Shown: positions 19,563 to 60,859, counted from the stretch's first letter. The stretch is DNA of 64,000 nucleotides from Candidatus Saccharimonadota bacterium (GCA_024635455.1 JAGXIU010000002.1:236309-300308), one strand, 5' to 3'. Program-made: numbers and translations. Notes: generated from the sequence alone by a model not told the origin.

Positions 19563-19584
19563 TGAACCGAATAATCTTAACTGA

Positions 19585-21359: not shown

Positions 21360-21364
21360 CGAAT

Positions 21365-32442: not shown

Positions 32443-32460
32443 TGGCCGGGGTGAGAGGAC
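32443..32460 (-). repeat. Direct repeat of the tRNA-Pro 3' end (att-like)
   Basis: TGGCCGGGGTGAGAGGAC versus TGGTCGGGGTGAGAGGAC at 37093-37110 (17 of 18 identical). Confidence 0.85.
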
Positions 32461-33584: not shown

Positions 33585-33661
33585 GCTACAAGCATAGAGA
33601 TAGTTATTCCATATAAAAAGAGACGACATGTAGCCGTCTCTTTAGTTATTGTTGCTGTTTT

Positions 33662-34231
33662 TTATTTAACCTGAACGATAGCACGGTCCGCATTAAATCC
33701 ATTCGGTTTCCAGATAACATACTGGTGTCCTTCTTCGACTGGTACTTCAAAAACAATCTGTCCTGATGCTTTTCCGCCAGCAACCATGTCTCCTGAGCTT
33801 AATGAGTTATCCACGGTAGCAAATGCTCCATCAAGAACTTGTCCTTCCGCAGTCTGAATACGAAAATCGAACACATTGTATGGCTTAGTTTCGTTACTGG
33901 TGTTCTCTAGTGCAACATCAGCAATAACATAGGTCTTTCCACTTCCAGCTTGTTCAAACTCACTTATAGTAGTCTTATAAACTACGTTAGAAAGAGTCAT
34001 CTTAACTCCGTCAACTGTAGCCGCTTCGCTTGGCAATACTTCTACGTCTTTGGGTTGCTTGTCTGCACGGTCGTCAAACCTGTATGTCTTCTCTCCACTA
34101 GCAGTGTTATTTTCGCCACCACTATTGTTTCCTGAATTATCACTACCACCACCTGCTGCACTTGCAATTACTGCAATCACAATAAAAGCCAATATGACTG
34201 TCAAAATTTTATGTTTCTTAAACCAACTCAC
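33662..34231 (-). CDS. DUF4352-like secreted/anchored protein (island cargo)
   Basis: N-terminal TM, G/S/N-rich linker, then YVIADVALENTSNE...FDFRIQ...ASGQIVFEVP, typical of DUF4352. Confidence 0.6.
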   Translation of the reverse strand: MSWFKKHKILTVILAFIVIAVIASAAGGGSDNSGNNSGGENNTASGEKTYRFDDRADKQPKDVEVLPSEAATVDGVKMTLSNVVYKTTISEFEQAGSGKTYVIADVALENTSNETKPYNVFDFRIQTAEGQVLDGAFATVDNSLSSGDMVAGGKASGQIVFEVPVEEGHQYVIWKPNGFNADRAIVQVK

Positions 34232-34361
34232 TATAAATCTCCTTATTAGTATTAACTATAATATACATTTAATTTCCTTACCTGTAAATATACCCTAAAT
34301 GATGCAAATAATAAACAGTTGGTTTATGTAACTATCTGTTTATTATTTCTACGCTTAGTAC

Positions 34362-34748
34362 ATGACCGAACAGAAACTAATGAAAGCCTTTGGTAAACGT
34401 GTTGCTGAGGTCCGAAAAAACAAAGGCATTACTCAACAACAACTAGCACATGATATTGGTATGAGTGTTGTCGCAATCGCATACATTGAAACTGGTAAAC
34501 GTTGGGCAAGGCTAGGAACACTCAATAAAATAGCCAAACGCCTAAAAGTCGATATTAGCGATTTATTTACAGGCATATACATAACTCAACTTTTGTCCAA
34601 AAACCTCGCTAAACGCCTCTCTGTACGTCACAGAGGGCTTAATTGTCTTTCATTAAATGTATCTGTAATGTGCAGAGCAAGACCCTACGATTTTTTTATC
34701 CAATTTTTTACTTATCAACGCCATTTATTAGCTTGTACAACATGCTGA
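34362..34748 (+). CDS. XRE-family HTH regulator with an atypical long C-terminal tail
   Basis: FGKRVAEVRKNKGITQQQLAHDIGMSVVAIAYIETGKR...LNKIAKRLKVDISDLF. The last ~55 aa are low quality and Cys/Leu-rich. Confidence 0.6.
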   Translation: MTEQKLMKAFGKRVAEVRKNKGITQQQLAHDIGMSVVAIAYIETGKRWARLGTLNKIAKRLKVDISDLFTGIYITQLLSKNLAKRLSVRHRGLNCLSLNVSVMCRARPYDFFIQFFTYQRHLLACTTC

Positions 34749-34796
34749 TTTCTTACATCAAAATAATTAAAAACCTAACGAAAACATGGGTGTTTT

Positions 34797-35030
34797 CTAG
34801 GTAAGTGTAAAGAAACTGAACACTACCTTATTTTGGTTTTCTTTTGCCGCAAGCATCTTCTCCCTAAACACTTCATTATTACGCATATAGTAGAAGAAAG
34901 TGGTACGACTTATGCCTGTCCAGCGACAAGCCTCGCTTATTGTGCTGTTGTGTTGTATTGCATCTTGAAGCCTTAGCATGGTTGTATAGGTGACTTTGGG
35001 CTTTCGTCCTATAGCTTTTCTTATTTCCAT
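34797..35030 (-). CDS. Small HTH protein (resolvase-HTH / terminase-small-subunit-like); possible directionality factor
   Basis: 77 aa containing ISEACRWTGISRTTFFYYM. Divergent from the recombinase promoter. Confidence 0.45.
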   Translation of the reverse strand: MEIRKAIGRKPKVTYTTMLRLQDAIQHNSTISEACRWTGISRTTFFYYMRNNEVFREKMLAAKENQNKVVFSFFTLT

Positions 35031-35098
35031 TTTACTCCTTTGTTTTCTGCGTTACCCCTGTTCTAATTATACAGAAGTAGCATTACCATAAAATATAC

Positions 35099-35127
35099 TT
35101 GACAATGCTTATGGTAAAGAGTATAAT
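35099..35127 (+). promoter_or_regulatory. Consensus sigma-70 type promoter facing the recombinase gene
   Basis: TTGACA (35099-35104), a 17-nt spacer, TATAAT (35122-35127). The 8-bp outer stem AGACCCCA/TGGGGTCT (35137-35184) follows directly. Confidence 0.6.
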
Positions 35128-35512
35128 TAGTAGTATAGACCCCACCAAGAAATCCTTTTCAGGAAGGTTTTTGACATGGGGTCTTAACTTATTTTAAGAC
35201 TTCATAAAAACCTTAGCGAACTAATAACACCTATCGCACTGAGAAAACTCATGGGGGTGAAGAACTTAAAACACTTCACTGGTCAAAGAAAGAACCAGTG
35301 TGGACTACGATGCAAAACTCGATGTTACATCAAATCAAAATACACAAAACAAAGATAGTGACAGCTTATTTAAGTTGTTGGAGTTGCTTAAAAAGGCAGA
35401 TATTAAAAACAATCTAGCCGACTTAAATGAAACAACTATGAGCGACAATAACGGTGGTCGTATAGAGCTTTAATCCTCGCACTCGTACTTTGACTAAGCT
35501 ACAATATATAGT

Positions 35513-37114
35513 ATGTATGAAGACGAAGAAGAACCACAAATAGATATAACAACGCTTCGGTATGTATTGTATGCACGAAAATCTACTGATGATCCAAAGC
35601 GTCAGGTGCGTTCTATTGATGACCAGATTGATGAATGTGAAGTCTTAGCAAGACGTAACGGAATGCGTATTGTCAAAAAGATTACAGAGGAAAAATCAGC
35701 AAGAAAAGCTGGAAATCGACCTAAGTTCGACCAGATGATTCAAGACATTGAGGCAGGTAAATATGATGGGGTTGTTGCTTGGAACCCTGATAGGCTCGCT
35801 CGGAATATGACAGAGGGCAGTCGTATACTGAGCCTTATTGATGCAGGTCGTATTGTTGACCTAAAGTTCGCAACACACCACTTTGTTAACGACTCAAGTG
35901 GACAGATGCTCCTCGGCATATCTTTCGTCATGGCTGATTACTACTCAAGAAGACTTTCAGAAAACGTCAATAGAGGCGTTAAGAAAGGCTTGAAAGAGGG
36001 TAAGTCATCAGGAACTCCAAAGCACGGCTATATTAGACATGAAGACGGTATTTATCGACCAGATGATGAAGATGGCTGCAAGAACTTTGAACTAATTTGT
36101 GATGCATGGAAGATGCGTAAAAAAGGTGATTCACTCAAAACGATTGCAAATTACATGAACAAAAATGGTTACGCACGTATTTATAAAGAAAACGCTGAAA
36201 AAGCAGGTCAAAAAGTAAATATGAGCGACAAGATACTAAGTAATACTGTATTTCCAGACCCCTTTTATTATGGAATCCTAATTCAGACAGATAAGCCTGT
36301 AGACCTTAGAGAGATTGATGAATACAATTTTAAGCCAGCTACCGATGAGGACACATACAATTACATACAGCAGATGACAGGTCGCTCTACTAAAAACACC
36401 AAACGTAGTGTATTCAAACCTTTAGTGGAAATGGTCTATTGTGCGTACTGCAATTCAAAGATGTACCCACAAACACCACAGTCCTCAAACAAGACAAGAA
36501 AATTATCATATAGGTGTGACAATGCACACTGTCAGCGTAAGAATAAAGAGCTTAAACTTAGCCAGTCAGTTAGAGGAATAGTCATATTTAAGTTCATGTA
36601 CGAAATGCTTGAGAATATAGAAGTCAATGAGAGCGATTACGAGAAGTTACGCAATAAGCTAATAGTAAGCAACCAAGCCAATGCACACAAACAGGCTATA
36701 GAGATTCACTCGCTTCAAGGTTCACTTAAGAGTATCGAGAAAGACATCAAGGATCGTAGCTTGAAGATTATTACATTAGACAAGAATAGTCCTATCTACA
36801 GAACTAATGAAACTCATATCAACGAACAGGGTGTCAGAGCTAACGAACTACGTAATGAAATTGATAAACTTACAGAACAGCGAACAAATCCAGACGAAGA
36901 CATTATGAGCTTTGAGGAGTTCTTGAACGTAATAAAAAACGCCAGCAAACACCTTAAAGTTGCTGACGTTGTACTAAAAGACCACATTGCTCGTTTAATC
37001 TACTTGAACGTACATGTAGATAGCGAAAATGTGGTCTCCTACCAGATGAAGGAGCCATTTAAGACTTACTTCAAATCGTATAAAATCTTTACTGGTCGGG
37101 GTGAGAGGACTTGA
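35513..37114 (+). CDS. Large serine recombinase (integrase)
   Basis: Resolvase domain YARKSTDD...SIDDQ...DRLAR, recombinase domain, zinc ribbon CAYCNSKM...YRCDNAHCQ and a long coiled coil. The stop TGA at 37112-37114 lies inside the tRNA-Pro T-loop. Confidence 0.9.
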   Translation: MYEDEEEPQIDITTLRYVLYARKSTDDPKRQVRSIDDQIDECEVLARRNGMRIVKKITEEKSARKAGNRPKFDQMIQDIEAGKYDGVVAWNPDRLARNMTEGSRILSLIDAGRIVDLKFATHHFVNDSSGQMLLGISFVMADYYSRRLSENVNRGVKKGLKEGKSSGTPKHGYIRHEDGIYRPDDEDGCKNFELICDAWKMRKKGDSLKTIANYMNKNGYARIYKENAEKAGQKVNMSDKILSNTVFPDPFYYGILIQTDKPVDLREIDEYNFKPATDEDTYNYIQQMTGRSTKNTKRSVFKPLVEMVYCAYCNSKMYPQTPQSSNKTRKLSYRCDNAHCQRKNKELKLSQSVRGIVIFKFMYEMLENIEVNESDYEKLRNKLIVSNQANAHKQAIEIHSLQGSLKSIEKDIKDRSLKIITLDKNSPIYRTNETHINEQGVRANELRNEIDKLTEQRTNPDEDIMSFEEFLNVIKNASKHLKVADVVLKDHIARLIYLNVHVDSENVVSYQMKEPFKTYFKSYKIFTGRGERT

Positions 37115-37169
37115 ACCTCCGACCTCACGGTCCCAAACCGCGCGCGCTAGCCAACTGCGCCACACCCCG
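37093..37169 (-). tRNA. tRNA-Pro (anticodon UGG), CCA encoded
   Basis: CGGGGTG TG GCGC AGTTGGCTA GCGC G CGCGG TTTGGGA CCGTG AGGTC GGAGG TTCAAGT CCTCT CACCCCG A CCA. Confidence 0.93.
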
Positions 37170-37337: not shown

Positions 37338-38126
37338 ATGGATTTTTTACTTTGGGCGTTCACAGTATCAGTCGGCATCAACATACTCATGTTCATACCG
37401 GCATTTATTTTTAAGACAGATAAACTAACAGATATTTCATACGGTGTAACCTTCGCAGTCGTTGCGTTGGCTGCCTACTTACGAAGTGAACGTGAGTTTG
37501 CACACGCCATACTACTATTCGCAGTGTTGGCTTGGGCAGTTCGCCTTGGTGGTTTTTTATTGATACGCATCAATAAAATGGGGAAAGACTCACGCTTCGA
37601 TGATATGCGCGATAAGTTCTTTGCTTTCTTGCGTTTTTGGTTACTACAGGGAGTAAGTGTGTTTGTCGTGCTGGCTGCGAGCATTTTGTTGTGGCAGGAG
37701 ACTGGCCCTACTGTTACGGCGTTATCTTGGGCCGGCATTATTATTTTTGCACTCGGTCTAGTGCTAGAAGCTACGGCTGACTACCAAAAGTTTTTGTTTA
37801 AGTTCAGCGGTAAGGCAAAAAAACACGAATGGATAGACGTGGGTGTTTGGCGAATGTCACGCCATCCAAATTATCTTGGAGAGATGATGGTATGGACTGG
37901 TCTGTATCTGTTTGTTCTGCCTTCTTTGAGCGGTTTGGCTGTTTTCGGTGGCTTAATAAGTCCGTTATATATAATCGCGCTATTGCTGTTTGGGAGTGGA
38001 GTACCGATTCTAGAAAAATATGCTGATAAAAAGTGGGGGAAGCAAGATGCTTTTCAGACATATAAACGCGAAGTACCCGTACTTATCCCGACTCCTGCTT
38101 CAGTCAAGCGAGCAATTTCTAAATAG
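37338..38126 (+). CDS. DUF1295 / steroid 5-alpha-reductase-like membrane protein
   Basis: WRMSRHPNYLGEMMVW motif and multiple TM segments. TATACT lies 7 nt before the ATG. Confidence 0.6.
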   Translation: MDFLLWAFTVSVGINILMFIPAFIFKTDKLTDISYGVTFAVVALAAYLRSEREFAHAILLFAVLAWAVRLGGFLLIRINKMGKDSRFDDMRDKFFAFLRFWLLQGVSVFVVLAASILLWQETGPTVTALSWAGIIIFALGLVLEATADYQKFLFKFSGKAKKHEWIDVGVWRMSRHPNYLGEMMVWTGLYLFVLPSLSGLAVFGGLISPLYIIALLLFGSGVPILEKYADKKWGKQDAFQTYKREVPVLIPTPASVKRAISK

Positions 38127-43211: not shown

Positions 43212-43289
43212 TGGGGCGAGTGATGGGTCTCGAACCCACGGCCTCCTGGACCACAACCAGGCGCTCTAACCAACTGAGCTACACCCGCC
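43212..43289 (-). tRNA. tRNA-His (anticodon GUG) with encoded G-1 and CCA
   Basis: G GCGGGTG TA GCTC AGTTGGTTA GAGC G CCTGG TTGTGGT CCAGG AGGCC GTGGG TTCGAGA CCCAT CACTCGC C CCA. Confidence 0.9.
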
Positions 43290-43376: not shown

Positions 43377-43399
43377 TCGCCAACTGAGATACATCCGCC
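43377..43399 (-). repeat. Duplicated 5' fragment of tRNA-His (pseudo-tRNA piece)
   Basis: The minus strand reads AATATGGCGGATGTATCTCAGTTGGCGA, against AATATGGCGGGTGTAGCTCAGTTGGTTA at the true gene. An inverted partner GTATCTCATTGG lies at 43324-43335. Confidence 0.6.
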
Positions 43400-43678
43400 A
43401 TATTGTTATCAGAAAACAGGGGTAATTATATCGTGTTTTATGCTCTGCCGCAACAGCCCTATAGAAGTCATAAAATCACTAGAGAACGTACGCGCAGGAT
43501 ATGTTTCTGAAGTGCAAATATGTCGATAGCTTGGACTGGATGACATTCTTAATCTACTAATGATGCTCAAAGCAAGTTTCTGTGCGTGATGCTCAATCCC
43601 CAAACTTGCCTGAGGGGTTGAACCTCGCCCACGCGAGCACCCATAGAAAAAGTCGGCCACAAGTGCCGACTTTTTCTA

Positions 43679-43695
43679 TGGTACCCCGGGAGGGA
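43679..43695 (-). repeat. Direct repeat of the tRNA-Arg(UCU) 3' end
   Basis: TGGTACCCCGGGAGGGA is identical to 43862-43878. It is followed (minus sense) by the hairpin CCATAGAAAAAGTCGGC...GCCGACTTTTTCTATGG. Confidence 0.9.
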
Positions 43696-43823
43696 TGACA
43701 TCGTTGCTTCTGCGCTGTTACTCGGAGCGAGCTCCTGCGTGACAGCTTGTATCACCGAACCACCCGACTACTATCTTTGCCTTCGGCAAATCCAGGTCGG
43801 TGAACCGAATCCTACTCGACACT
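43696..43823 (-). repeat. T-arm-mimic structured module, copy Arg(UCU)
   Basis: The minus strand reads GGATTCGGTTCACCGACC, TTTGCC GAA GGCAAA, GTCGGGTGGTTCGG, then CACGCAGGAGCTCGCTCCGAGTAAC. Confidence 0.6.
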
Positions 43824-43861
43824 CCAAATAAAAAGCCGGTCATTTAGACCGGTTTTTTATT
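43824..43861 (-). terminator. Terminator hairpin starting at the tRNA-Arg CCA
   Basis: CCAAATAAAAAACCGGTC TAAAT GACCGGCTTTTTATTTGG (minus sense). Confidence 0.8.
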
Positions 43862-50002: not shown

Positions 50003-50142
50003 GAGGGCATGATAGCACGCTAGGCTGAGTAGTTTAAAATAGCTCAGCCCTCTTTAGTGGAGGTCGACAAAAGGCGACGGGCTGATCATGTAACGAAATA
50101 CTAATGCTAATTCGCATAAATTACTTGATACAATATCTCAAC

Positions 50143-50412
50143 ATGAGTAAAAGAGAGCACGAACTACAAGAGAATATTGAGTTGGCTGGTGAGCTTGTTG
50201 TAGTTGGTGGACTATATACTAACTACAAGAATCTAGACAATATTTATGAGGCGCAGAAGCTAACTATCATGGAATCAGATGAGTCCGTGGCGATTACTTA
50301 CCAAGCTTTATATGGGCTGAAAATTACGTTTACTCGCCCTCTTTATGAGTGGATTGAGCAGGTAGAATTTGAGGGTGAACTTGTTCCGCGATTTAGGAAG
50401 TATTCTTTTTAG
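50143..50412 (+). CDS. DUF1653-like protein
   Basis: GGLYTNYKN...YEAQKL...ITYQALYG... and C-terminal GELVPRFRKY resemble DUF1653. Confidence 0.5.
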   Translation: MSKREHELQENIELAGELVVVGGLYTNYKNLDNIYEAQKLTIMESDESVAITYQALYGLKITFTRPLYEWIEQVEFEGELVPRFRKYSF

Positions 50413-50468: not shown

Positions 50469-50702
50469 TTACTTGCTTGAAGCGTTGTGTTTCATATTCA
50501 TATAAATACCGCCTGCCTCTAGCTCGTCTAGCATTTGGCTGAGCCTTTTGTTTATAGTTTGCTCTTGTTTTGCGCGCTCAATCCAGCTTATATAATCATT
50601 TCTCTGGTATTCAGGCCTACCATTGTAAGCTTCTACTAGTTTTCTTTCCTGGAGGGCATTTTTGATAAAATCAGGCATTGGGTGAACTTTTCTTTGCAAC
50701 AT
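50469..50702 (-). CDS. YdeI/OmpD-associated (OmdA) family protein
   Basis: PDFIKNAL...YNGRPEYQRNDYISWIERAKQEQTINKRLSQMLDELEAG. Confidence 0.6.
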   Translation of the reverse strand: MLQRKVHPMPDFIKNALQERKLVEAYNGRPEYQRNDYISWIERAKQEQTINKRLSQMLDELEAGGIYMNMKHNASSK

Positions 50703-50727
50703 AACTAAATATTAACAAAAAAAAGAT

Positions 50728-50774
50728 CCTGCGACCACTGTCTTCCCTCCGGCAAATCGAATCTCGCTCGATAG
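50728..50774 (-). repeat. Truncated T-arm-mimic module fragment downstream of tRNA-Arg(UCG)
   Basis: The minus strand reads GAGCGAGATTCGATTTGCCGGAGGGAAGACAGTGGTCGCAGG. It is related to the Arg(UCU) copy and preceded by the CCA-hairpin CCAAATAAAGAGTCGGCC...GCCGGCTTTTTTATTGGG. Confidence 0.4.
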
Positions 50775-50811
50775 CCCAATAAAAAAGCCGGCACAAGGCC
50801 GACTCTTTATT

Positions 50812-52161: not shown

Positions 52162-52238
52162 GGGCCAGTAGCTCAGCTGGTTAGAGCACCTGCCTCTTAA
52201 GCAGGGTGTCGAGGGTTCGAGTCCCTCCTGGCCCTCCA
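52162..52238 (+). tRNA. tRNA-Lys (anticodon CUU), CCA encoded
   Basis: GGGCCAG TA GCTC AGCTGGTTA GAGC A CCTGC CTCTTAA GCAGG GTGTC GAGGG TTCGAGT CCCTC CTGGCCC T CCA. Confidence 0.95.
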
Positions 52239-52274
52239 ATTCATGAAGCCACCTTGTGTGGCTTTTTGAATTGG

Positions 52275-52401
52275 ATAGACGAGCTCCGAACCTGAGACAC
52301 AGATTCGCCACCTGGCGAAGATGTAAGTCGAGTGGTTCGTTCGTAAGGATCTCTCGCAGAAGCTTGCTTCGAGAAAGTGACGCAACGTGCCGCGGGCAGC
52401 C
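52275..52401 (+). repeat. T-arm-mimic structured module, copy Lys(CUU)-1
   Basis: CTCCGAACCTGAGACAC, TTCGCC ACCT GGCGAA, GTCGAGTGGTTCG, then TCTCGCAGAAGCTTGCTTCGAGAAAGT (52352-52378). Confidence 0.6.
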
Positions 52402-52419
52402 CCCTCCTGGCCCTCCAAT
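52402..52419 (+). repeat. Direct repeat 1 of the tRNA-Lys(CUU) 3' end
   Basis: CCCTCCTGGCCCTCCAAT is identical to 52223-52240. The hairpin AAAACGCCCACC...GGTGGGCGTTTT follows. Confidence 0.9.
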
Positions 52420-52462
52420 ATAAAACGCCCACCTTTTCGTTACCGGTGGGCGTTTTATATTG

Positions 52463-52599
52463 ATTGTCTTGAATGGCTCGACTCCTCGAAACGCCAAAAA
52501 GGTGTCGTGGGTGAAGATTTCCAGTGGCAATCCGCAAGAGAATCTTCACCTGACAGCAGTGCTGTCACGGCGGAAGTTCTGGGCCCGCAGAATGTGGGC
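52463..52599 (+). repeat. T-arm-mimic structured module, copy Lys(CUU)-2 (more diverged)
   Basis: AATGGCTCGACTCCTCGAAACGCC ... GGTGTCGTGGGTGAAG, plus further hairpins (GAAGATT..AATCTTC, CTGACAGCA..TGCTGTCA). Confidence 0.5.
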
Positions 52600-52621
52600 G
52601 AGTCCCTCCTGGCCCTCCAAT
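52600..52621 (+). repeat. Direct repeat 2 of the tRNA-Lys(CUU) 3' end
   Basis: GAGTCCCTCCTGGCCCTCCAAT is identical to 52219-52240 (22 nt). Confidence 0.9.
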
Positions 52622-52656
52622 ATGTTTAATCGTTCTCGTCCTGCTATACTTCACTT

Positions 52657-53388
52657 ATGAAACCCAGAAAATTCGCTGTTTTCGACCTTGACGGCACTCT
52701 ATTCCGCTCTTCATTGTATTTTGAGATTGTTCATGAGCTCTCCAGGAGCGGGAAGCTGGACGCTATCACAAGACAAGCCATAGATAGCGCATATTCCGAC
52801 TGGAAAATTAGAAAGTCAGATGAAGTTTTTTGGGAATATGCCAATTCGCTCATGTCTGCATACCAAGAACAACTGCAAGACCTATCTCCTGAAGATTACG
52901 AGACAGCTGTAAGGCAAGTATTTGAGTCTCAAAAGGAATACGTATATGTATACCCAAAACAAATGTTGGCTAGACTAAAACGAGAGGGTTATTTTTTGCT
53001 GGCAATATCTGGCTCGCAGGTAGAGATAATAAGATTATTCTGTGAATATCATGGATTTGACGACTGGCTTGGCTCGGTGCATGAGCGTGATAATTACGGC
53101 CTCTTTACTGGCAATTCTACAATAACTCATATAGATAAGTCCGACGCTCTCAATGAGCTTGTGTCAAAAAATAATCTAAGCCTTGAGGGTAGTATCGGCA
53201 TAGGCGATACACAGGGCGATACAAAAATACTCAATATGGTCGAAAAGCCGATAGCCTTTAACCCAAATAAACAGCTTTACGAACACGCTAAAAATAATGG
53301 CTGGGAATTAGTTTTCGAAAGAAAGAATGTAGTGATACAGCTGACCAAAATCAATGAAAAGTACGTACTTAATGAAAAGAACCTTTAG
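52657..53388 (+). CDS. HAD-IB family hydrolase (phosphoserine-phosphatase-like)
   Basis: FAVFDLDGTLF, ISGS, GDTQGD. TGCTATACT lies 6 nt before the ATG. Confidence 0.7.
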   Translation: MKPRKFAVFDLDGTLFRSSLYFEIVHELSRSGKLDAITRQAIDSAYSDWKIRKSDEVFWEYANSLMSAYQEQLQDLSPEDYETAVRQVFESQKEYVYVYPKQMLARLKREGYFLLAISGSQVEIIRLFCEYHGFDDWLGSVHERDNYGLFTGNSTITHIDKSDALNELVSKNNLSLEGSIGIGDTQGDTKILNMVEKPIAFNPNKQLYEHAKNNGWELVFERKNVVIQLTKINEKYVLNEKNL

Positions 53389-53407
53389 TCGCGCTGGCAT
53401 GCGCTAT

Positions 53408-53466
53408 AGCCCTCCAATCTTGTTATGTTTGAAACAGAGTTGACCCGCCTCTGTTTTTGCTATAGT
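53408..53466 (+). promoter_or_regulatory. Cassette junction (tRNA remnant, terminator hairpin, extended -10)
   Basis: AGCCCTCCAAT CTTGTTATGTTTG AAACAGAG TTGACCCG CCTCTGTTTT TGCTATAGT, with the ATG 7 nt later. Confidence 0.55.
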
Positions 53467-53473
53467 TAAGTCT

Positions 53474-54142
53474 ATGGACGAATTAAATAAAGCAACTACA
53501 ACTTTTTTGCAGAAGCTAACTAAGGATGAAAGCGTTCTAGGGGTTGCTCTATTTGGTTCGTGGGCCAGAGGTAATCAAAGGGAAGACAGTGATGTTGATT
53601 TGCTCGTAATTGTAAAACAGGGTTACAAGCGATCAATTGAATACGTAGAGAGTCAAGCGTTTGAAATAATATACACCTCCGTAGAGGGTGCAAAAAAATA
53701 CTACAAAACAGATTTAGATGCGACACATAGGTTTTGGGCACATGCAAAAATTTTAATGGACCGAGACAATTCAATACAACCTTTGAAAGAATTTGCCATT
53801 GATCTCACAAAAAATGGAAAAGCGGTTCTTTCTGAAGATGATTTGAAGTATTTTGAGTTTGATGCTCTAGACCAAATTAGGTTTGCTACCGCGGCACATT
53901 CAAATGGCGATATTGCGACAGCAAACTTAGTTTTACATATTAAGGTGGCTGCACTAGCAGAAATATACTTCGATACAATTCAAGAATGGCGACCTGCCCC
54001 AAAACAGATTTTGGCTGAAATACAAAATAGAAATGAAAAACTGGGTAATCTTCTAGCTAATTTTTATTCTGACGAGATTCATTTTAGTAACCAAGCTGAG
54101 CTGACAGAAAAGATTATTGGCGTGATATTCCAGAAAGACTAA
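53474..54142 (+). CDS. Nucleotidyltransferase-domain protein (KNTase/MNT-like, N-terminal NTase plus helical C-domain)
   Basis: GVALFGSWARGNQREDSDVDLLVIV. Confidence 0.7.
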   Translation: MDELNKATTTFLQKLTKDESVLGVALFGSWARGNQREDSDVDLLVIVKQGYKRSIEYVESQAFEIIYTSVEGAKKYYKTDLDATHRFWAHAKILMDRDNSIQPLKEFAIDLTKNGKAVLSEDDLKYFEFDALDQIRFATAAHSNGDIATANLVLHIKVAALAEIYFDTIQEWRPAPKQILAEIQNRNEKLGNLLANFYSDEIHFSNQAELTEKIIGVIFQKD

Positions 54143-54186
54143 TTCACCTCAGCATACAAAAAAATAGTTACAAAAAGAAACACAGT

Positions 54187-54245
54187 AGCCCTCCAATACG
54201 CTTATGTTTAAAACAGAGGTAATTCGCCTCTGTTTTTGCTATAAT
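54187..54245 (+). promoter_or_regulatory. Cassette junction (tRNA remnant, terminator hairpin, extended -10)
   Basis: AGCCCTCCAAT ACGCTTATGTTTA AAACAGAGG TAATTCG CCTCTGTTTT TGCTATAAT, with the ATG 6 nt later. Confidence 0.55.
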
Positions 54246-54251
54246 AATTCT

Positions 54252-54614
54252 ATGAAACAAAGCATTATCTTTCAAAGACTAGAGGGTTTTACTCTGCTTG
54301 TAGTTAGTATTTTTGTATACGTGAATCTGAATTTGAATATCTTTGTATTTATTCTAGCTTTGCTGCTTGTAGATATTTTTATGGCTGGTTATCTCATAAA
54401 CAATAAAGTCGGCGCATACATTTACAATGTAGGACATTCCATCTCTATCCCTTTAGTTATAGGGGCTGCAGGATATTACACAGGTTCAGGTATGACGATA
54501 GCAGTGAGCTTAATCTGGTTTGCGCACATTGGAATGGATAGAGCATTTGGGTATGGCCTGAAACTTGAATCTGGATTCAAAAACACTCATCTCGGCCACA
54601 TCGGTAAAAAATAG
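54252..54614 (+). CDS. DUF4260-like small membrane protein
   Basis: Start at MKQSIIFQRLEG. C-terminal HIGMDRAFGYGLK...FKNTHLG pattern. The ORF-track start at 54204 runs through the junction hairpin. Confidence 0.55.
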   Translation: MKQSIIFQRLEGFTLLVVSIFVYVNLNLNIFVFILALLLVDIFMAGYLINNKVGAYIYNVGHSISIPLVIGAAGYYTGSGMTIAVSLIWFAHIGMDRAFGYGLKLESGFKNTHLGHIGKK

Positions 54615-54633
54615 TTGTAACCAGTAGTACGGT

Positions 54634-54661
54634 AGCCCTCCAAATCGCAGTTTGCTATGAT
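54634..54661 (+). promoter_or_regulatory. Cassette junction, hairpin-deleted variant
   Basis: AGCCCTCCAAAT CGCAGTT TGCTATGAT, with the ATG 6 nt later. Confidence 0.45.
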
Positions 54662-54667
54662 GAGATT

Positions 54668-55561
54668 ATGAATCTTGATTCACTGCAACCACTTTCAGGA
54701 AAAATACCACCATACCCCTTGCAAAGTGACGATTTAACCCAACAAGCTATACAAAAATTTGCTAGTGACAATGGTTATGAATTTTATTCAAAAAAACCTG
54801 AACTGGTTCAATACAACTGGCGAGACTACAAAAAACTTCCTTCTCACCTTGGTATGGTTGGCCCAACAGCGTCTAAAGATGCATACAATGTCATTCAAGG
54901 CAATTACATGGGCTATCCGTTTACGATGTACCTGATGTGGGATAATATAATCAACGGGAAATACTACAGTAGATACAGCAGAGCGACTGAAGATCAGAAA
55001 ATAGAATACATAAAACAGCAGACAACAGGAGTGATCAGATTAGCTTTGCCTAAGGTATTTCCGCAAATAGTGCTTGATTCAAACAAAAACGATGATGGTG
55101 CTTGGAGTAGTATACGCACCGAATTTTCCCAATCCCAGAAATTACAACTCGAAGGTGATTTCTCTCAATATTTTGATTTATATATACCTTCTGGGTTACA
55201 AATCAACGCGCTCAGTGTATTGGCCCCAAATATGATGCAGATACTAAAAAATCATTCTGGACTATTTGATGTAGAATTTTTTGGAAATGAGATGATCTTA
55301 ATGACACGGCATTCTTTGTATGACCCAGCAAATATGAAGCTACTAGAGGAGGCACTTAAAGAGCAATTAGCCTACATGACCCGCCTCATGAATAGTTGGA
55401 ACTACATGCCAATCAATAATCCCTTTGACTTACTGGAGAGACCATCAATAGGGGGTAATACTATAAAAATTGGCAATCTACGCCTAACAGCCAAAATGCA
55501 ATTAATTGCGATTTGTGCGTTTTTCTTACTTTTTAGCTTTATCATCATGTGGCTAAACTAA
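54668..55561 (+). CDS. Hypothetical protein with C-terminal TM anchor
   Basis: 297 aa. The C-terminus is MQLIAICAFFLLFSFIIMWLN. No motif recognised. Confidence 0.5.
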   Translation: MNLDSLQPLSGKIPPYPLQSDDLTQQAIQKFASDNGYEFYSKKPELVQYNWRDYKKLPSHLGMVGPTASKDAYNVIQGNYMGYPFTMYLMWDNIINGKYYSRYSRATEDQKIEYIKQQTTGVIRLALPKVFPQIVLDSNKNDDGAWSSIRTEFSQSQKLQLEGDFSQYFDLYIPSGLQINALSVLAPNMMQILKNHSGLFDVEFFGNEMILMTRHSLYDPANMKLLEEALKEQLAYMTRLMNSWNYMPINNPFDLLERPSIGGNTIKIGNLRLTAKMQLIAICAFFLLFSFIIMWLN

Positions 55562-55596
55562 AGTTTTGGGCAGCAGTTGCAACAAGAAGTACGGCG

Positions 55597-55653
55597 GTCA
55601 TCCAATACGAGTATGGTTAAAACAGAGGTGATTTGCTCTGTTTTTGCTATACT
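55597..55653 (+). promoter_or_regulatory. Cassette junction, decayed remnant
   Basis: GGTCATCCAAT ACGAGTATGGTTA AAACAGAGG TGATTTG CTCTGTTTT TGCTATACT. Confidence 0.45.
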
Positions 55654-55687
55654 CAGTTCATAGAAATGGAGCCAAAAATGTGAGGTC

Positions 55688-55944
55688 ATGCCTCCAGAGG
55701 TGGGAGTACATGAGAGCTATAAGAGCACCCCAGAGGACAGACGATATTACCAGTTGCTTGGGCTTGCTCGGCACATAGAGACCGACGAAATTTTGACGAT
55801 CTACGTGCCACTATATGTACACTTGATGTACATCAGGTGGATCAGCGAGCTCGCTCGTCGGATGTGTTTCTGGAAGATGTTGAGGCTGATGGCCAGCCTG
55901 TTCCCCGATTTCGCTATATCGACCCAAACATTTTGACGCTATAA
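55688..55944 (+). pseudogene. DUF1653-like gene interrupted by a frameshift
   Basis: The first frame gives YYQLLGLARHIETDEILTIYVPLY and then nonsense. A second frame from about 55807 gives ...DVFLEDVEADGQPVPRFRYIDPNILTL, with a stop at 55942-55944. Confidence 0.6.
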
Positions 55945-56529
55945 AGAATAATCAGTCAGCAATAGCTTAAATAGTGAGTGCCATATTTCTTGAGCATGCT
56001 CTTTTTTATGTAGTTTTTCTGGATGAAACTGTACGCCGATTTGAGGTTGGTGCTCGTGTTTCATAATTTCGATGCAGTCCTCGGAAGTAGCAAGTATATC
56101 GAACGGTGAGGGAGCTTGCGTGACTCCTACAGTGTGATTTTCATAGACAGGGAAGTTATCTGTCCAATCAAGCAGTTCTTGGCCAGTTTGTGTTAGCTCA
56201 ATTGTTCGCATACCGTGTTGTTGATGCTTTAGCTTTGTCAGCTCTCCGCCGTAGCTGGCAGCCAGTAGCTGCATGCCAAGACAAATCCCGAGAACTGGCG
56301 TCTGTGCGTGTCGTATATACTCAATCTCTTCGCCGTAATGTAGCCCTTGTTGTGTAGGGTCTTTGTACCACAATCCTCCAGATAGGATAATCAAATCATA
56401 GTTTCGGGAGTTCGCTTCAATATGCGTGCTGAGTGAATTGACCACATCATACGTTAGCTGATTGCGGCGGCAAGCGTGAACTAATTCCGGTAAATTATCG
56501 GATTGGTTATCGATTATAAGTACATGCAT
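55939..56529 (-). CDS. Class I glutamine amidotransferase-like protein
   Basis: Nucleophile elbow GICLGMQLL and FHPE near the C-terminus. TATACT lies 7 nt before the ATG on the minus strand. Confidence 0.7.
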   Translation of the reverse strand: MHVLIIDNQSDNLPELVHACRRNQLTYDVVNSLSTHIEANSRNYDLIILSGGLWYKDPTQQGLHYGEEIEYIRHAQTPVLGICLGMQLLAASYGGELTKLKHQQHGMRTIELTQTGQELLDWTDNFPVYENHTVGVTQAPSPFDILATSEDCIEIMKHEHQPQIGVQFHPEKLHKKEHAQEIWHSLFKLLLTDYSL

Positions 56530-56546
56530 AACGCACAGTATACCTG

Positions 56547-56556
56547 AGCCCTCCAG
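56547..56556 (+). repeat. Last tRNA-Lys(CUU) 3' remnant (end of array)
   Basis: GAGCCCTCCA, with G replacing A afterwards. Confidence 0.4.
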
Positions 56557-56675
56557 TGGATTAAGAATCTTCAGCCGCGGAAATATTAGATAATATACAA
56601 AATTAGGCTAGATTTACAAAAATAGTGGCGTATAGTTCGTAGTAATAGAACGTTAATTACAGGCAATTCGTTTGT

Positions 56676-56963
56676 ATGGAAACAAAACAATCATACCAAG
56701 ATACACCTACTCTACCAGCTGACACATCAATTAGTAGAGATGACGCAATGATGGAAGCTGTGACAGAACTATGTGCGGCAAGGCGAGCTTATGACGAGCT
56801 TATTCTTGGAGTAATTATTTGTAGTCCAGACCGGGACCCTGATGTACAGGTGTCGATAGATGAAAGAATACGTGACTGTAAAGACCGAGAGGCTGCCGCA
56901 AAGTCAGAATACGACACGATCTTTAGTGGCCGGAGTCACTTTACTCCTGGAGGCTCAACCTAA
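56676..56963 (+). CDS. Hypothetical protein
   Basis: 95 aa. No motif recognised. Confidence 0.4.
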   Translation: METKQSYQDTPTLPADTSISRDDAMMEAVTELCAARRAYDELILGVIICSPDRDPDVQVSIDERIRDCKDREAAAKSEYDTIFSGRSHFTPGGST

Positions 56964-57046
56964 GGTAATATCGTGTGATAAATATCGCATATAGAAGTGC
57001 GGAACTATGATAAACATAAACGTATAGTTAAACTCATAAAAACACT

Positions 57047-57400
57047 ATGACAAACCAGCCAAAACCGATAATCCCAAAAAAACTACAGCCGCACGGCATA
57101 CGGTCTGAACTACCTCGTATCAAAAGTGCACCACCAACCCTAGAGTCTACAGAGTCGCAGACGCCATTAGAGCGGTATCAACGAATTTCTCATGAGATGG
57201 CGCGTACAATAGATGTAAAAAAACAAATAGAGGCTCGAGAGCGAGAGCTAGGTATAGCGCTGACACTTGCTAGGAACGCGTGCATTATGGCTGGTATTGA
57301 AAATCCAGCCGCAGAACCCAAGCCAGCAGAGTTTGATCAGACGACCGAAGGTTCTGAGCAGGCTGACTTCACTATCATTCACCGCCGTTCAGTAATATAG
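57047..57400 (+). CDS. Hypothetical protein
   Basis: 117 aa. No motif recognised. Confidence 0.4.
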   Translation: MTNQPKPIIPKKLQPHGIRSELPRIKSAPPTLESTESQTPLERYQRISHEMARTIDVKKQIEARERELGIALTLARNACIMAGIENPAAEPKPAEFDQTTEGSEQADFTIIHRRSVI

Positions 57401-57457
57401 CTCAACTGCTTGAGCCAGATCACGCTATAGGTGTTGTTGCGTGCTACAATACCTTTC

Positions 57458-58267
57458 GTGCAGAAACTACTCAATGGAACTGAATTAGCCGGATATATAA
57501 AGTCACGACAAGCTCATCAAGTGCGTGGACTAATTCAGGCACATAATATCCAGCCAAAACTGGCGATTATTCAAGCCAAAGACGACCCAGTTATAAATAC
57601 GTATGTGCGCCTCAAGAAGCAATACGGCGCCGATATATCGGTAGAAGTTGATGATTATGTTTTAGACCAAGCTGATGTAGCTGATCGTATAACGGCGCTC
57701 AATGCAGACGATACAGTGCACGGTATTATTGTTCAGCTGCCATTAAGTGATCCGTCACAAACCGACACACTCTTAGCCCAGGTTGATCCCCAGAAGGACG
57801 TCGATGCTCTTGGAAGTACGCAATATTTTCAGCCTGCTACGCCAATGGCAATTATGTGGCTACTTGCTGGTTACAATATTGAGTTACGAGGCAAAAACAT
57901 CTTATTAATCGGGCAGGGTAAGTTGGTCGGCGCTCCACTAAGGTCAATACTCGAGTCAGCCGATTTGCCAGTGACTGTTGCTAGTAGGGATACCAAAGAT
58001 CTAAAGGCACTCACTCAAGAGGCGGATATTATTGTGACCGCGACTGGCAGTCCAGCAATTATATACGCAGATATGTTAAAGCCAGGTGTTGTGGTCGTTG
58101 ACGCTGGTGTGGCGAGCGAAGGTGGAAAGACGGTCGGGGATGTTGCCGCAGATGTGTACGAGCGGGATGACATTATTGTCACTCCGCCAAAAGGTGGTGT
58201 CGGTCCTCTAACGGTTTGCTCACTGTTCGAAAACGTTATCAGAGCTGCTGGGAATCACGCTAGCTAA
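57458..58267 (+). CDS. folD: Bifunctional methylenetetrahydrofolate dehydrogenase/cyclohydrolase FolD
   Basis: LLNGTELAGYIK..., VQLPLS, GQGKLVGAPL, PPKGGVGPLT. GTG start chosen; the ORF-track start at 57431 is also non-ATG. Confidence 0.85.
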   Translation: MQKLLNGTELAGYIKSRQAHQVRGLIQAHNIQPKLAIIQAKDDPVINTYVRLKKQYGADISVEVDDYVLDQADVADRITALNADDTVHGIIVQLPLSDPSQTDTLLAQVDPQKDVDALGSTQYFQPATPMAIMWLLAGYNIELRGKNILLIGQGKLVGAPLRSILESADLPVTVASRDTKDLKALTQEADIIVTATGSPAIIYADMLKPGVVVVDAGVASEGGKTVGDVAADVYERDDIIVTPPKGGVGPLTVCSLFENVIRAAGNHAS

Positions 58268-59549
58268 CCTCAGACAATAAAAACCCTCGAATATCTTCTG
58301 GCATGCTATCGGGCATTAGCTGGCGATAGTCGTAGCTCTCAGGCAGCGAAACTTCATATTTCTTCATCTCAGGATGAGATTCTTGGGCCATCTTTAGTGC
58401 AGATTGGGCTTCTTTAATCTCACCGACACATTCTAGTGGTTTATCACCTTGGATTCCTAAGAGCTCTTGATAGGTTTGCTCTAGTTTTGAGTCGGTAAAC
58501 AGGTTTTTGCCAAAAACTGATTCGAGGGTTTTTTGCTCAGCAAAAGGGCTAAGGGCAAGGAAAGTAAAAGCGCACTTTGGGCATTCACCACACCAGAACA
58601 TACGATTGCTATGCTGGGTAAAGGCGCGGTTACACGAGCTGAAAACGCCTTGATACTTATTCAGAAAACCTCTTTTTACAAATAGCTCAGCTATATGCAG
58701 GTCGCTTAGTGGCCGCAAAAACGAATAGTAGTGTTGAGCTGTATCAAAATGACGTTTCAGCAGGTTTTGGTATTGCTCTTCAAAGTCTTGCGACTTCGAG
58801 TATTGATGATTAATCGGTACATCCTGGTAGGTCAAGTTTGGTTCATTAGCCGAGTATTCGTTTGATACAACAACATCAGATCTTCCAGAGAGAATGGCGA
58901 CTATTGTACCGACGCAAGCCAAGATTGCTGAAATTGGCACATGTCCATTGAGTGCGTCTTTTTGGTTGAGTTCACTTATCTTTTTGTCTAATTGTCGCTC
59001 AACCCACATATGAGGAAGCCCTACTTTTTCAACAAGCGGCTCAAGTTGCTGACGGTGACCAAGGCTCCAGGTCGCAACATTTGGTAGGTCGCGCAAGAAT
59101 TCCACACTGACCAGTGAATCTTTTCCACCACCCAGTGCAATTAGCTGACCGTGTGGGGCATCTTCACGGATGGAAACTGCCGTTGCTTCTTCCGTATTGG
59201 CTACAAAAGGAATTTCTGTGCGTGGATTGAGCTTGTTCGTATAGAAAAACTCGCCCAGACCTTTTTGATAGACCTCGCTAAAAAACTTTGCATCTTCATC
59301 GTTGAGCTGTCCGGCTTCGATGATAATCTCTGGTGGTAGGTACATTTTGTAGTAGGAGACGCCAGCCATAAAGAAGAGATTCTGTAGTGCTCGGTCCAGG
59401 GCCACTTTGTCATAGTCAGTAAATTTGAAGTCAAAAGTGTAGCGTTCCTCGAACTGCACCTCATCATCAAGACTGTAGGTAAAAACGGCCTGCTTGGACG
59501 TCTCGTCAAAACGATAGGACAAAAAGATAAAACGTTGAAAATGGCTCAT
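58260..59549 (-). CDS. PP-loop (GGGKDS) ATP-pyrophosphatase-like protein translationally coupled to murD; possible MurL-type epimerase
   Basis: LIALGGGKDSLVS motif, CGECPKC cluster, and a 4-nt overlap with the murD stop. The functional call is inference from context. Confidence 0.4.
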   Translation of the reverse strand: MSHFQRFIFLSYRFDETSKQAVFTYSLDDEVQFEERYTFDFKFTDYDKVALDRALQNLFFMAGVSYYKMYLPPEIIIEAGQLNDEDAKFFSEVYQKGLGEFFYTNKLNPRTEIPFVANTEEATAVSIREDAPHGQLIALGGGKDSLVSVEFLRDLPNVATWSLGHRQQLEPLVEKVGLPHMWVERQLDKKISELNQKDALNGHVPISAILACVGTIVAILSGRSDVVVSNEYSANEPNLTYQDVPINHQYSKSQDFEEQYQNLLKRHFDTAQHYYSFLRPLSDLHIAELFVKRGFLNKYQGVFSSCNRAFTQHSNRMFWCGECPKCAFTFLALSPFAEQKTLESVFGKNLFTDSKLEQTYQELLGIQGDKPLECVGEIKEAQSALKMAQESHPEMKKYEVSLPESYDYRQLMPDSMPEDIRGFLLSEVS

Positions 59550-60859
59550 AGATTCTCCACAGCTTCATTAAAGGCCTGGCCGCGCACCTCGAAGTTCTTA
59601 AACATATCAAAACTTGCACAAGCGGGCGATAGCACGACAGCATCACCAGTCTGAGCTTCTTTTGTGGCTCGTTGCAGAATTTCTTGCATTGACGTGCTCT
59701 CAGACACCACATAGTCGGCGTAACCTACCTCATCAAATGTATTGGCGATTCTCTGAGCAGAAGCACCAATCAGAACGACTTTTCGTACGTTTGCCTCTGG
59801 CTTGGTGATTATTTCTGCGAGCTTTTGGAAGTCAAGGCCACGATCATAGCCACCCACGATCATTACTTTTTTGTTTGGTATTGCTCGAATTGCTGCAATG
59901 GCTGCGCCTGGGGCGGTGGCGAAGGAGTCATTGTAGTAATCGATGCCATTGTGTGTACCGCGAGGCTCAATCCGAAACGGTAACCCACTAAAAGTACTGA
60001 TAGCTTGCCTCATTACTGCAGTATCTTGCGTTACTTGCCACACTGCTGTCACCGCTGCACAGACGTTTTCGTAGTTGTGTGCGCCTGTCAAAGCAACATC
60101 GTCCAATGAGCAAACTTCTATATCGTCTATAACTATCGAATTTTCCTGTACGTGAGCGCCTTGCTCTGAGAAATAAGCGACGTGTTTACCTAGGCTACTG
60201 CGAGCAATGTGCATGGATCGGTTGTCGTCGTTTTTATAAATCGCTATATCTTGTTCTGTTTGGTGGAGGAAAAGTTGCTGTTTGGCTCGCAAATATTCAT
60301 CAAGAGACTTATGCCAGTCTAGATGTTCTGGCTCAATCATCAAGCAGAGTGCAATATGTGGTGAATGGGCTAGATCAATTAGCTGGTAATTGGCGAGCTC
60401 TAGTATAACCCAATCATCTGGCTCGATAGCATCTTCTAGCATATCCAGTGGAGGTATACCGATATTTCCACCGAGGTGAACGTTTTTGCCAGCCGCCTCA
60501 AGCATGTTGGCGATCAGCGTACTAGTCGTGCCTTTGCCTTTGGTGCCAGTGACACCAATAATATTCTTGGTAGGACAAACGCGAAAGAACTCGTTCGTTA
60601 CGGTTGTGGTCTTTTCGAGGATATCTGGACTGTCTGGGTTTGAAGTTTGAATAGCTGCTGGGTGTATTCCAGGGGTGCGAACCAATACATCAAACTCATG
60701 TAAGTTCGCAAGGTAGTGCTCTCCAAGCTGAGTGGGCACCCCTTTAGGGGTCTCGACGGCTTTGTTCTTATCGCAAATAGTTATTTCATTGCCATCTCTT
60801 GACCAGTACTTTAGGGCTGATCGACCTTGCCGATCATATCCCAATAGTGCAATCTTCAT
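59546..60859 (-). CDS. murD: UDP-N-acetylmuramoyl-L-alanine--glutamate ligase (MurD family)
   Basis: GVTGTKGKGTTSTL, Mur ligase middle and C-terminal patterns. Confidence 0.88.
   Translation of the reverse strand: MKIALLGYDRQGRSALKYWSRDGNEITICDKNKAVETPKGVPTQLGEHYLANLHEFDVLVRTPGIHPAAIQTSNPDSPDILEKTTTVTNEFFRVCPTKNIIGVTGTKGKGTTSTLIANMLEAAGKNVHLGGNIGIPPLDMLEDAIEPDDWVILELANYQLIDLAHSPHIALCLMIEPEHLDWHKSLDEYLRAKQQLFLHQTEQDIAIYKNDDNRSMHIARSSLGKHVAYFSEQGAHVQENSIVIDDIEVCSLDDVALTGAHNYENVCAAVTAVWQVTQDTAVMRQAISTFSGLPFRIEPRGTHNGIDYYNDSFATAPGAAIAAIRAIPNKKVMIVGGYDRGLDFQKLAEIITKPEANVRKVVLIGASAQRIANTFDEVGYADYVVSESTSMQEILQRATKEAQTGDAVVLSPACASFDMFKNFEVRGQAFNEAVENL

Follow-up and report, generated by a model that had tools for sequence, protein, structure and literature searches.

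A window of 64,000 nt from Candidatus Saccharimonadota bacterium (GCA_024635455.1 JAGXIU010000002.1:236309-300308, one strand), the whole stretch of DNA analyzed here, carries a tandem array of short units on the 3' side of a tRNA-Lys(CUU) gene. Comparative sequence analysis, the basis of the whole study, points to an undescribed integron-like gene-capture system in uncultured Saccharimonadia, bacteria of the Candidate Phyla Radiation (CPR). The region 52239-56555 is probably an array of small mobile units that would undergo site-specific exchange, catalyzed by an enzyme acting in trans, at a core sequence copied from the tRNA 3' end. The best named homologues of the PFK protein encoded in the window belong to Candidatus Saccharimonadia/Saccharimonadales.

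The core, GGCCCTCCA, is the last 9 nt of tRNA-Lys(CUU) (52230-52238), comprising the 3' strand of the acceptor stem, the discriminator base and CCA, and it is copied at each unit boundary. Two modules without an open reading frame (ORF) follow the tRNA, then five units, with a core copy closing each unit. A junction consensus was drawn from repeat families D1, D2 and D6 together with 30 junctions of other loci. Junctions read in the order right end (TAGTTGC-N15), core, 2-5 variable nt, left end (GCTTATGCTTAAAA) and hairpin; the downstream part has an A-tract/stem/T-tract hairpin, often AAAACAGAGG-N7-CCTCTGTTTT, followed by TGnTAnnnT, 6-7 nt and the ATG. The array and its borders are made up of the following features.

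52162-52238 (+): tRNA-Lys(CUU), called by ARAGORN; Rfam tRNA model, 72.2 bits.
52239-52417 (+): module M1, ORF-less, with a terminator hairpin, a structured region and 17 nt of the tRNA 3' end.
52418-52619 (+): module M2, ORF-less, closing with 23 nt that repeat the tRNA 3' end exactly, their final AT lying in the next unit.
52620-53416 (+): cassette 1, with TGCTATACT (52642-52650), 6 nt and a HAD hydrolase ORF (52657-53388), then a variant right end (53387-53407) and the core AGCCCTCCA (53408-53416); it is without a left-end hairpin.
53417-54195 (+): cassette 2, with the left-end hairpin AAACAGAG..CCTCTGTTTTT (53432-53458), TGCTATAGT (53458-53466), 7 nt and an NTP_transf_2 ORF (53474-54142, Pfam), then a right end (54166-54186) and core (54187-54195); repeat families D1, D2 and D6.
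54196-54642 (+): cassette 3, with a hairpin (54210-54237), TGCTATAAT (54237-54245), 6 nt and a DUF4260 ORF (54252-54614), then a right end (AGTTG..., 54613-54633) and core (54634-54642); junction profile match at 54611-54644, 18.2 bits.
54643-55604 (+): cassette 4, with TGCTATGAT (54653-54661), 6 nt and a 297-aa ORF (54668-55561), then a consensus-type right end AGTTGCAACAAGAAGTACGGC (55575-55595, 22.5 bits) and a decayed core, GGTCATCCA; its hairpin is lost.
55605-56555 (+): last unit, with a left-end hairpin (55619-55645), TGCTATACT (55645-55653), a DUF1653 pseudogene (about 55660-55936), a GATase gene on the - strand (55939-56529) and the closing core AGCCCTCCA (56547-56555), before which there is no right-end motif.
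56599-58300 (+): right flank, with a 95-aa ORF, a 117-aa ORF and FolD, conserved with metagenome locus L032.

The initial annotation of this DNA had proposed a tandem array of one-gene units at tRNA-Lys(CUU), and the core repeats are indeed clustered there, far above chance. The sequence GCCCTCCAAT (at most 1 mismatch) occurs in 11 copies in the window versus 2.4 expected, a count that none of 100 shuffles attained. On the + strand, seven of these copies lie within 52231-56557, with exact copies at 52231, 52410, 52612, 53409 and 54188 and 1-mismatch copies at 54635 and 56548. The first three belong to 23-nt repeats of the tRNA 3' end (family D3) that flank the ORF-less modules, and the rest precede or close genes; the decayed copy GGTCATCCA lies at 55596-55604. 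Both M1 (fold z = -2.55) and M2 (fold z = -5.24) are members of family D3.

Pfam and direct reading of the sequence agreed with the gene content first listed for the array: a HAD hydrolase, a nucleotidyltransferase, DUF4260, a C-terminally anchored protein, a frameshifted DUF1653 gene and an inverted GATase gene. The absence of a recombinase was also confirmed, as none was found among the array ORFs by Pfam. The 297-aa protein has a hydrophobic C-terminus and no Pfam match. The DUF1653 copy in the array (Pfam fragment 55688-55936) has ATA at 55660, where promoter geometry predicts ATG, plus a frameshift, with the conserved C-terminal ..GQPVPRFRYI.. encoded in another frame (read from sequence); this copy is a pseudogene, and an intact DUF1653 paralogue is present at 50104-50412. 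The stop codon of the DUF4260 ORF (TAG, 54612-54614) doubles as the first triplet of the TAGTTG right end, and the right-end TAG likewise serves as the ORF stop in several cassettes elsewhere (metagenome loci L053, L072, L073 and L074).

The shared junction of about 60 nt that had been noticed at three array sites and at the tRNA-Lys(UUU) locus was recovered at 53407-53464, 54186-54243, 55597-55651 and 6942-6999 (families D1 and D2). It reaches about 21 nt farther upstream than had been seen (family D6), so that the families span about 85 nt. The right end has the consensus (T)AGTTGC-N15, most commonly in the form AGTTGCAACAAGAAGTACGGT, with AGTTGCrATAGCaTCyACkAT as a second subtype; the 15-nt spacing from right end to core is exact in both. 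Hairpin stems differ in sequence among cassettes while the A-tract/stem/T-tract form is kept, and the left-end hairpins are best read as intrinsic terminators that would insulate each unit. The aligned junctions show no hairpin at the right end of gene cassettes. A T-arm mimic or an attC-like palindrome was considered for the right end; inspection revealed no convincing pairing.

A scan of metagenomes with the right-end motif AGYTGCRACRAGAAGTASG returned 68 stretches. In 16 loci (18 sites, GC 0.38-0.46) the core follows the motif directly; L017, with the motif but without the core downstream of tRNA-Lys(CUU), brings the real loci to 17, and the remaining stretches are chance matches in unrelated DNA. 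The search with the junction consensus that the initial annotation had suggested found the arrangement in 16 further loci, and a same-strand tRNA-Lys lies upstream in 12 of the 17 (11 CUU, 1 UUU), the five without one in view being short contigs or incomplete stretches. Loci compared are designated by L-numbers, and ORF calls in them are mechanical. Arrays hold one to seven units each. A census of units with recognizable cores gave 46 in 18 non-redundant loci, including 29 single-ORF units (357-999 nt, median 506), whose ORFs all lie on the tRNA strand (29/29), 12 ORF-less units (121-327 nt) and five multi-ORF units, some of which probably result from missed decayed junctions. Viral contigs, scanned for the right end, for the core joined to the left end and for the 23-nt end of the tRNA, yielded no true match; phage or plasmid carriers were therefore set aside, there being no signature on viral contigs. 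No exact entry for the PFK protein (365-aa ORF in the window; database copies are mostly shorter, at 358 aa) was on record. A scan of genome contigs with PFK gave, among the matches listed, only relatives of about 40% identity, which were of no use for synteny.

The cargo is accessory in character and includes ADH_zinc, SDR, GDSL, alpha/beta hydrolase, NUDIX, methyltransferase, GNAT, HAD, NTase and kinase proteins, CsoR with a Cu-ATPase, and small membrane proteins. A putative ABC-type transporter was read from the products of 456-, 230- and 287-aa ORFs in L020. Arrays L072, L074 and L087 include putative aminoglycoside-modifying enzymes (APH, ANT(2'') of PF10706, and GNAT), and toxin-antitoxin pairs occur as well (RelB/ParE, and ParE/Phd in L011).

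Comparison of related loci demonstrated that the content behind the tRNA turns over. The window and L032 have the tRNA and the right flank in common (blastn, 73% over 1.7 kb, 56599-58300), and no array gene; the L032 array carries DUF1905, a 206-aa ORF and His_Phos_1. Because homology with L032 resumes at 56599, the variable region extends over about 52239-56598. Both arrays close with a core 40-100 nt before the common flank, so the DNA from the tRNA CCA to the last core behaves as inserted DNA. In L007-L009 and L011-L012, PFK is 82-83% identical to that of the window, and PFK and tRNA-Lys(CUU) are kept with different genes after the tRNA. L007-L009 extend to FolD. Junctions of the window's type number four in L011, and L007 retains a single decayed one. 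Variation in cassette content among relatives, a check proposed with the initial annotation, was therefore found, as a complete difference between the window and L032, L007 and L011.

Single cassettes recur in different arrays. The 297-aa cassette is also present in L048, L086 and L087 (61-62% amino acid identity), with other neighbours and at other ranks, either behind tRNA-Lys(CUU) or between junctions; more distant homologues (L088, L089) lie outside arrays in ordinary chromosomal contexts, which is what capture of the gene would predict. In L026 and L037 the leading cassette encodes a 111-aa membrane protein that recurs at about the third position in L020; L017 and L020 both carry an ADH_zinc cassette; and GATase, on the - strand in the window, is a core-bounded + strand cassette in L074. 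L026 and L037 are about 100% identical save for a 121-nt module in L037, located exactly between two cores, and one deletion, by which L037 lacks about 85 nt at the 3' end of the ORF of the first cassette relative to L026.

The ends themselves assort freely. Upstream ends are of four types (the tRNA, right-end subtype A, subtype B and the module 3' end) and downstream ends of two (the left-end hairpin and the module 5' hairpin). Every upstream type occurs with either downstream type, and the 9-nt core is all that these joints have in common. Bases after CCA follow the downstream partner and bases before GCCC follow the upstream partner, which places the exchange point inside the invariant core. 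The core of tRNA-Lys(CUU) has CCCTCCA in common with its tRNA-Lys(UUU) counterpart, GGACCCTCCA, the boundary sequence of the junction at 6942. Free assortment of ends at a 9-nt core is a prediction of site-specific exchange and would be hard to obtain by homologous recombination.

A rival explanation is natural transformation followed by RecA-dependent homologous recombination, in which the 60-90-nt junctions would serve as portable homology arms and no dedicated enzyme would be needed. The window encodes RuvC/RuvA/RuvB, a type IV pilus cluster (PilM, PilC-like, PilB-like and pilins) and RecA/RecX (12103-14216 and 15715-24967), so machinery for DNA uptake and homologous recombination is encoded nearby, and junction identity across arrays from different organisms is 80-100%, both of which speak for such a route. 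However, many joints share only the 9-12-nt core, too short for efficient homologous recombination, as when tRNA|core|left end is compared with right end|core|module, or in the module insertion of L037. The exact 15-nt spacing from right end to core in two subtypes also suggests recognition by a protein rather than use of homology. We consider this explanation unlikely.

In the site-specific mechanism that we favor, units would be inserted serially at the 3' end of tRNA-Lys(CUU), each beginning right after the CCA and closing with its own GGCCCTCCA. A typical gene cassette is 0.36-1.0 kb in length and carries a left end (GCTTATGCTTAAAA) and hairpin, an extended -10 box, one ORF on the tRNA strand, a right end and a core; its left-end hairpin would terminate transcription arriving from upstream. 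Units would be gained, lost and reshuffled through strand exchange within the core, most likely in the CCCTCCA common to both Lys tRNA ends. The recombinase would be encoded elsewhere and act in trans, in which case any core, whether the tRNA's or not, could receive or release a unit. Sequence comparison shows the anatomy of the units, their tie to tRNA-Lys in many metagenomes, the turnover of content and the reassortment of cassettes and ends; from it we infer how strands would be exchanged, that an enzyme and circular intermediates take part, and where transcription would begin and stop. The initial annotation's idea of repeated site-specific insertion at the tRNA 3' end gains support from the turnover of content, the shared cassettes, the core-bounded insertion/deletion and the assortment of ends. 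Its corollary, that older cassettes are pushed outward, found no support: junction scores neither rise nor decay steadily away from the tRNA, and L026 and L037 differ in a unit inside the array.

The search for a recombinase covered the window, the arrays and their flanks. No integrase gene was present in the 46 units of the 18 loci, and a crude regular expression for the tyrosine-recombinase motif found no match in the window or the 19 array loci scanned. The sole recombinase in the 64-kb window, which was scanned in full with Pfam, is a large serine recombinase (35513-37114) at tRNA-Pro. It was rejected as the array enzyme because it overlaps the tRNA-Pro 3' end and so belongs to a separate tRNA-Pro-linked element. 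Its gene overlaps tRNA-Pro (37093-37169, -) by 22 nt, and the stretch before the gene has low GC (0.39) and an HTH_3 gene at 34362-34748 (region 32000-37169). A separate integrated element probably occupies 32000-37169; the tRNA-Pro end occurs only once in the window.

A Y1_Tnp (IS200-type) gene was found in L087 at 2730-3146, 4.3 kb upstream of tRNA-Lys, and with it comes the question of single-strand mobilization by a trans-acting HUH (Y1) transposase of the IS200/IS605 or RAYT type (REP-associated tyrosine transposase; REP, repetitive extragenic palindrome). Insertion would then occur 3' of ..CCCTCCA without target duplication, the right-end core being part of the element. Several features fit this route: units invariably enter 3' of the same short sequence and in a single orientation; a subterminal hairpin is found 12-15 nt in from the left end; and in modules a hairpin precedes the 3' end by about 15 nt, and the fold uses G-T/G-U pairs on the + strand only. 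The right end of gene cassettes, by contrast, has no hairpin, and no Y1 transposase was found in the window or the other array loci (tblastn; Pfam on the window). The L087 transposase bears its own unrelated terminal hairpins and, having no tblastn homologue in the window or other array loci, was rejected as the mobilizer. We also think mobilization of this kind unlikely.

Promoter-like signals were examined with simple pattern matches for Shine-Dalgarno motifs and -10 boxes. In 28 of 39 cassette ORFs, TAnnnT, mostly as the extended TGnTAnnnT, ends 6-7 nt before the ATG, and only 1/39 has a Shine-Dalgarno-like motif. With an extended -10 box at this distance from the start codon, cassette mRNAs are probably leaderless. 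The geometry noted at first was confirmed at all five intact array genes, where the -10 box ends 6-7 nt before the ATG and no Shine-Dalgarno motif is present; it is not specific to the array, as 17 of 64 window ORFs have it, including 12 of the 59 outside the array (among them 7756-9282 (-), 35513-37114, 37338-38126 and 59546-60859 (-)). Shine-Dalgarno-like motifs precede 28/64 window ORFs. Leaderless mRNAs may be common in this organism.

These signals also bear on whether there is a mobile system at all. A regulatory repeat (terminator, promoter or motif of the 3' untranslated region) might simply be reused in an ordinary hypervariable island whose content is changed by unrelated processes: the hairpin and extended -10 box are plausible expression signals, and the same promoter geometry precedes the 12/59 non-array ORFs. 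Several observations are at odds with this. The right end and core are confined to tRNA-Lys loci, the core equals a tRNA 3' end, different arrays contain identical cassettes with the same bounding ends, and ORF-less units carry those same ends. Within the 64-kb window, the profile built from the 30 outside junctions matched only 54165-55606, within the array, and bare cores at the tRNA and modules. The junction is therefore not a genome-wide terminator-promoter repeat, a possibility that had been named as one that would undo the initial reading. Neither does it behave as a dispersed intergenic repeat of the miniature inverted-repeat transposable element (MITE) or REP kind, the one further junction (6942-6999) being at a tRNA-Lys locus as well. 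We regard the absence of a mobile system as very improbable.

Several points nevertheless weigh against site-specific mobility of the units. Arrays look stable at the strain level (L020 = L028 = L054, and the window = L085), and neither an excised circle nor an empty site was observed among the loci compared. Pfam revealed no recombinase or transposase domain in any array and no recombinase in the flanks covered, and by inspection the junctions have no obvious core dyad symmetry of the kind seen in simple tyrosine-recombinase sites. As expression signals, the hairpin and -10 box could owe their conservation to selection for expression and nothing else. The junctions of the window are diverged copies, scoring 22.5, 18.2 and 7.5 bits at 55575, 54611 and 54165 (7-22 bits) versus 30-45 bits elsewhere, and given this divergence this particular array may be inactive.

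The ORF-less modules form a family found directly downstream of four tRNAs of the window, namely Lys-CUU (twice), Lys-UUU, Arg-TCT and Arg-TCG, the last being a truncated copy. Beside M1 and M2 (52239-52417 and 52418-52619, Lys-CUU), the copies are:

5535-5832: module at Lys-UUU.
43663-43861 (-): module at Arg-TCT.
50715-50811 (-): truncated module at Arg-TCG.

Except in the truncated Arg-TCG copy, the module 5' terminator hairpin pairs with the tRNA CCA tail, and each module closes with 17-23 nt of its own tRNA's 3' end. A consensus structure from six copies at five loci has 59 pairs, 27 with compensatory changes. Its closing helix joins 5' GGCTYGA with a T-loop-derived TCGAGCC near the 3' end, G-U pairs are formed on the + strand, and a hairpin lies about 15 nt before the module 3' end. 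Modules gave nothing at the gathering threshold in the Rfam scan of the window and nothing credible in permissive searches; they are a structured element without an Rfam entry. ORF-less units of 120-330 nt thus have a conserved fold in place of a gene, and by inspection the cassette right end resembles the module 3' segment (..CTAGTTTGCCTTGGCAGAAGTTTCGG..).

Modules could represent cassettes without an ORF, tRNA-trailer RNAs or components of the machinery for insertion. A bolder reading, which we hold only tentatively and think rather unlikely, makes them the active core of the system: as folded RNAs or single-stranded DNA sites, they would use a free 3' tail to program or template insertion at a matching tRNA, and gene cassettes would be derivatives that keep the module 3' segment as their right end. 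Such insertion would be structure- or RNA-guided, known so far only from Saccharimonadia and mechanistically unrelated to integrons. The module 3' tails match their own adjacent tRNA, whether Lys-CUU, Lys-UUU, Arg-TCT or Arg-TCG. If modules do guide insertion, the system would be categorically new.

Other tRNA loci of the window have related layouts. The junction at the tRNA-Lys(UUU) locus comprises:

6942-7632 (+): junction and gene, in which a module-like stretch (6790-6951) ends in TGGACCCTTCA, its own tRNA 3' end, and is followed by a left-end hairpin, TGGTACACT, 6 nt and a DUF2268 ORF (7009-7632, +).

The whole locus (5458-9282) looks like a second small array, with a module, a PsbP_2-like gene (5956-6666, -), the module-like stretch and DUF2268, after which comes a PIF1-like helicase gene (7756-9282, -) with the same leaderless-type promoter. 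On the 3' side of tRNA-Arg(TCG), a truncated module, TGTTAATAT-N6-ATG and an OmdA-family gene (50469-50702, -) have a cassette-like layout; this gene adjoins the intact DUF1653 gene (50104-50412). A 29-nt copy of the 5' end of tRNA-His (43212-43288, -), 90% identical (family D11), lies at 43380-43408, about 90 nt upstream. Elsewhere in the window, a c-di-GMP-II-GAG riboswitch aptamer (1900-1985, 50.2 bits, above the gathering score) is located upstream of a gene for a secreted CAP-domain protein (2051-2794).

CPR bacteria (Patescibacteria) have tiny genomes and few recognized mobile elements, and their acquisition of accessory genes is poorly understood. Among the closest known systems are integrons, sedentary chromosomal integrons in particular, and clusters of attC sites lacking integron-integrases (CALINs). 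Like them, the arrays described here consist of one-directional, mostly single-ORF cassettes of 0.4-1 kb with a site at every boundary and a fixed platform; cargo is accessory, resistance-like or of the toxin-antitoxin type, some cassettes are ORF-less, and content differs completely between related genomes. The likeness to an integron first claimed for the locus therefore stands for layout, with 29/29 single ORFs on the tRNA strand and variable content among syntenic relatives, and fails for the defining parts. No intI lies beside the array. The R''-L''/L'-R' boxes of attC (GTTRRRY) were not found in the 30 aligned junctions, where a direct core stands between a non-palindromic right end and the left end, and the sole hairpin is the terminator 12-15 nt downstream. 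Whereas integron cassettes are promoterless and depend on Pc, most cassettes here (the 28/39 above) have a predicted -10 box of their own, and typical ones a putative terminator hairpin. The platform is a tRNA 3' end rather than attI, and the host is a CPR bacterium.

Xer-dependent modules, such as the integrative mobile elements exploiting Xer (IMEX) at dif and the pdif modules of Acinetobacter plasmids, are small and recombinase-free, are moved in trans by a host enzyme and accumulate in tandem at a single site on the chromosome. Their XerC-spacer-XerD sites are 28 bp long (11-6-11), pdif sites alternate in orientation, and chromosomal elements lie at dif. The left-end motif TTATGCTTAAA resembles a XerD arm, by eye only; in contrast to Xer sites, the site here is a tRNA end without an 11-6-11 dyad, and all repeats are direct. 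A dif site or replication terminus at the locus was rejected, as no GC-skew switch occurs at the array. Palindrome-associated transposable elements (PATEs) derived from IS200/IS605, and REP/RAYT systems, are non-autonomous hairpin elements moved in trans, with strict orientation, 3' of a short sequence. A left-end hairpin is present here too, with a right-end hairpin in ORF-less modules only and no Y1 gene in the window or the loci other than L087; unlike those elements, the units are confined to tRNA ends rather than dispersed in the genome.

The tycheposons of Prochlorococcus are likewise tRNA-anchored and integrate serially, with partial tRNA copies between elements and adaptive cargo, and they measure kilobases to tens of kilobases, carry their own tyrosine or large serine recombinase and often have replication genes (bioRxiv 10.1101/2020.12.28.424599). 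The arrays have in common with them insertion at a tRNA, a full tRNA with partial tRNA direct repeats, and adaptive cargo; they differ in having units of 0.12-1 kb (10-100 times smaller), no recombinase, and conserved left and right ends. A full-text literature search found no account of such arrays in Saccharibacteria/Patescibacteria, nor of integron-like arrays at tRNA ends. We conclude that the known kind to which the system would belong is the site-specific gene-capture platform, and that we found no prior description of a tRNA-end array of this type. The signature TAGTTGC-N15-GGCCCTCCA would allow mining of the accessory gene pool of Saccharimonadia, including putative aminoglycoside-modifying enzymes, and the cassettes would provide compact natural units of terminator and leaderless promoter, and possibly a site-specific insertion tool, for newly tractable bacteria. 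If the reading is true, a cassette platform at a tRNA, served by a recombinase in trans, would be a second, independently evolved answer to the problem that integrons solve.

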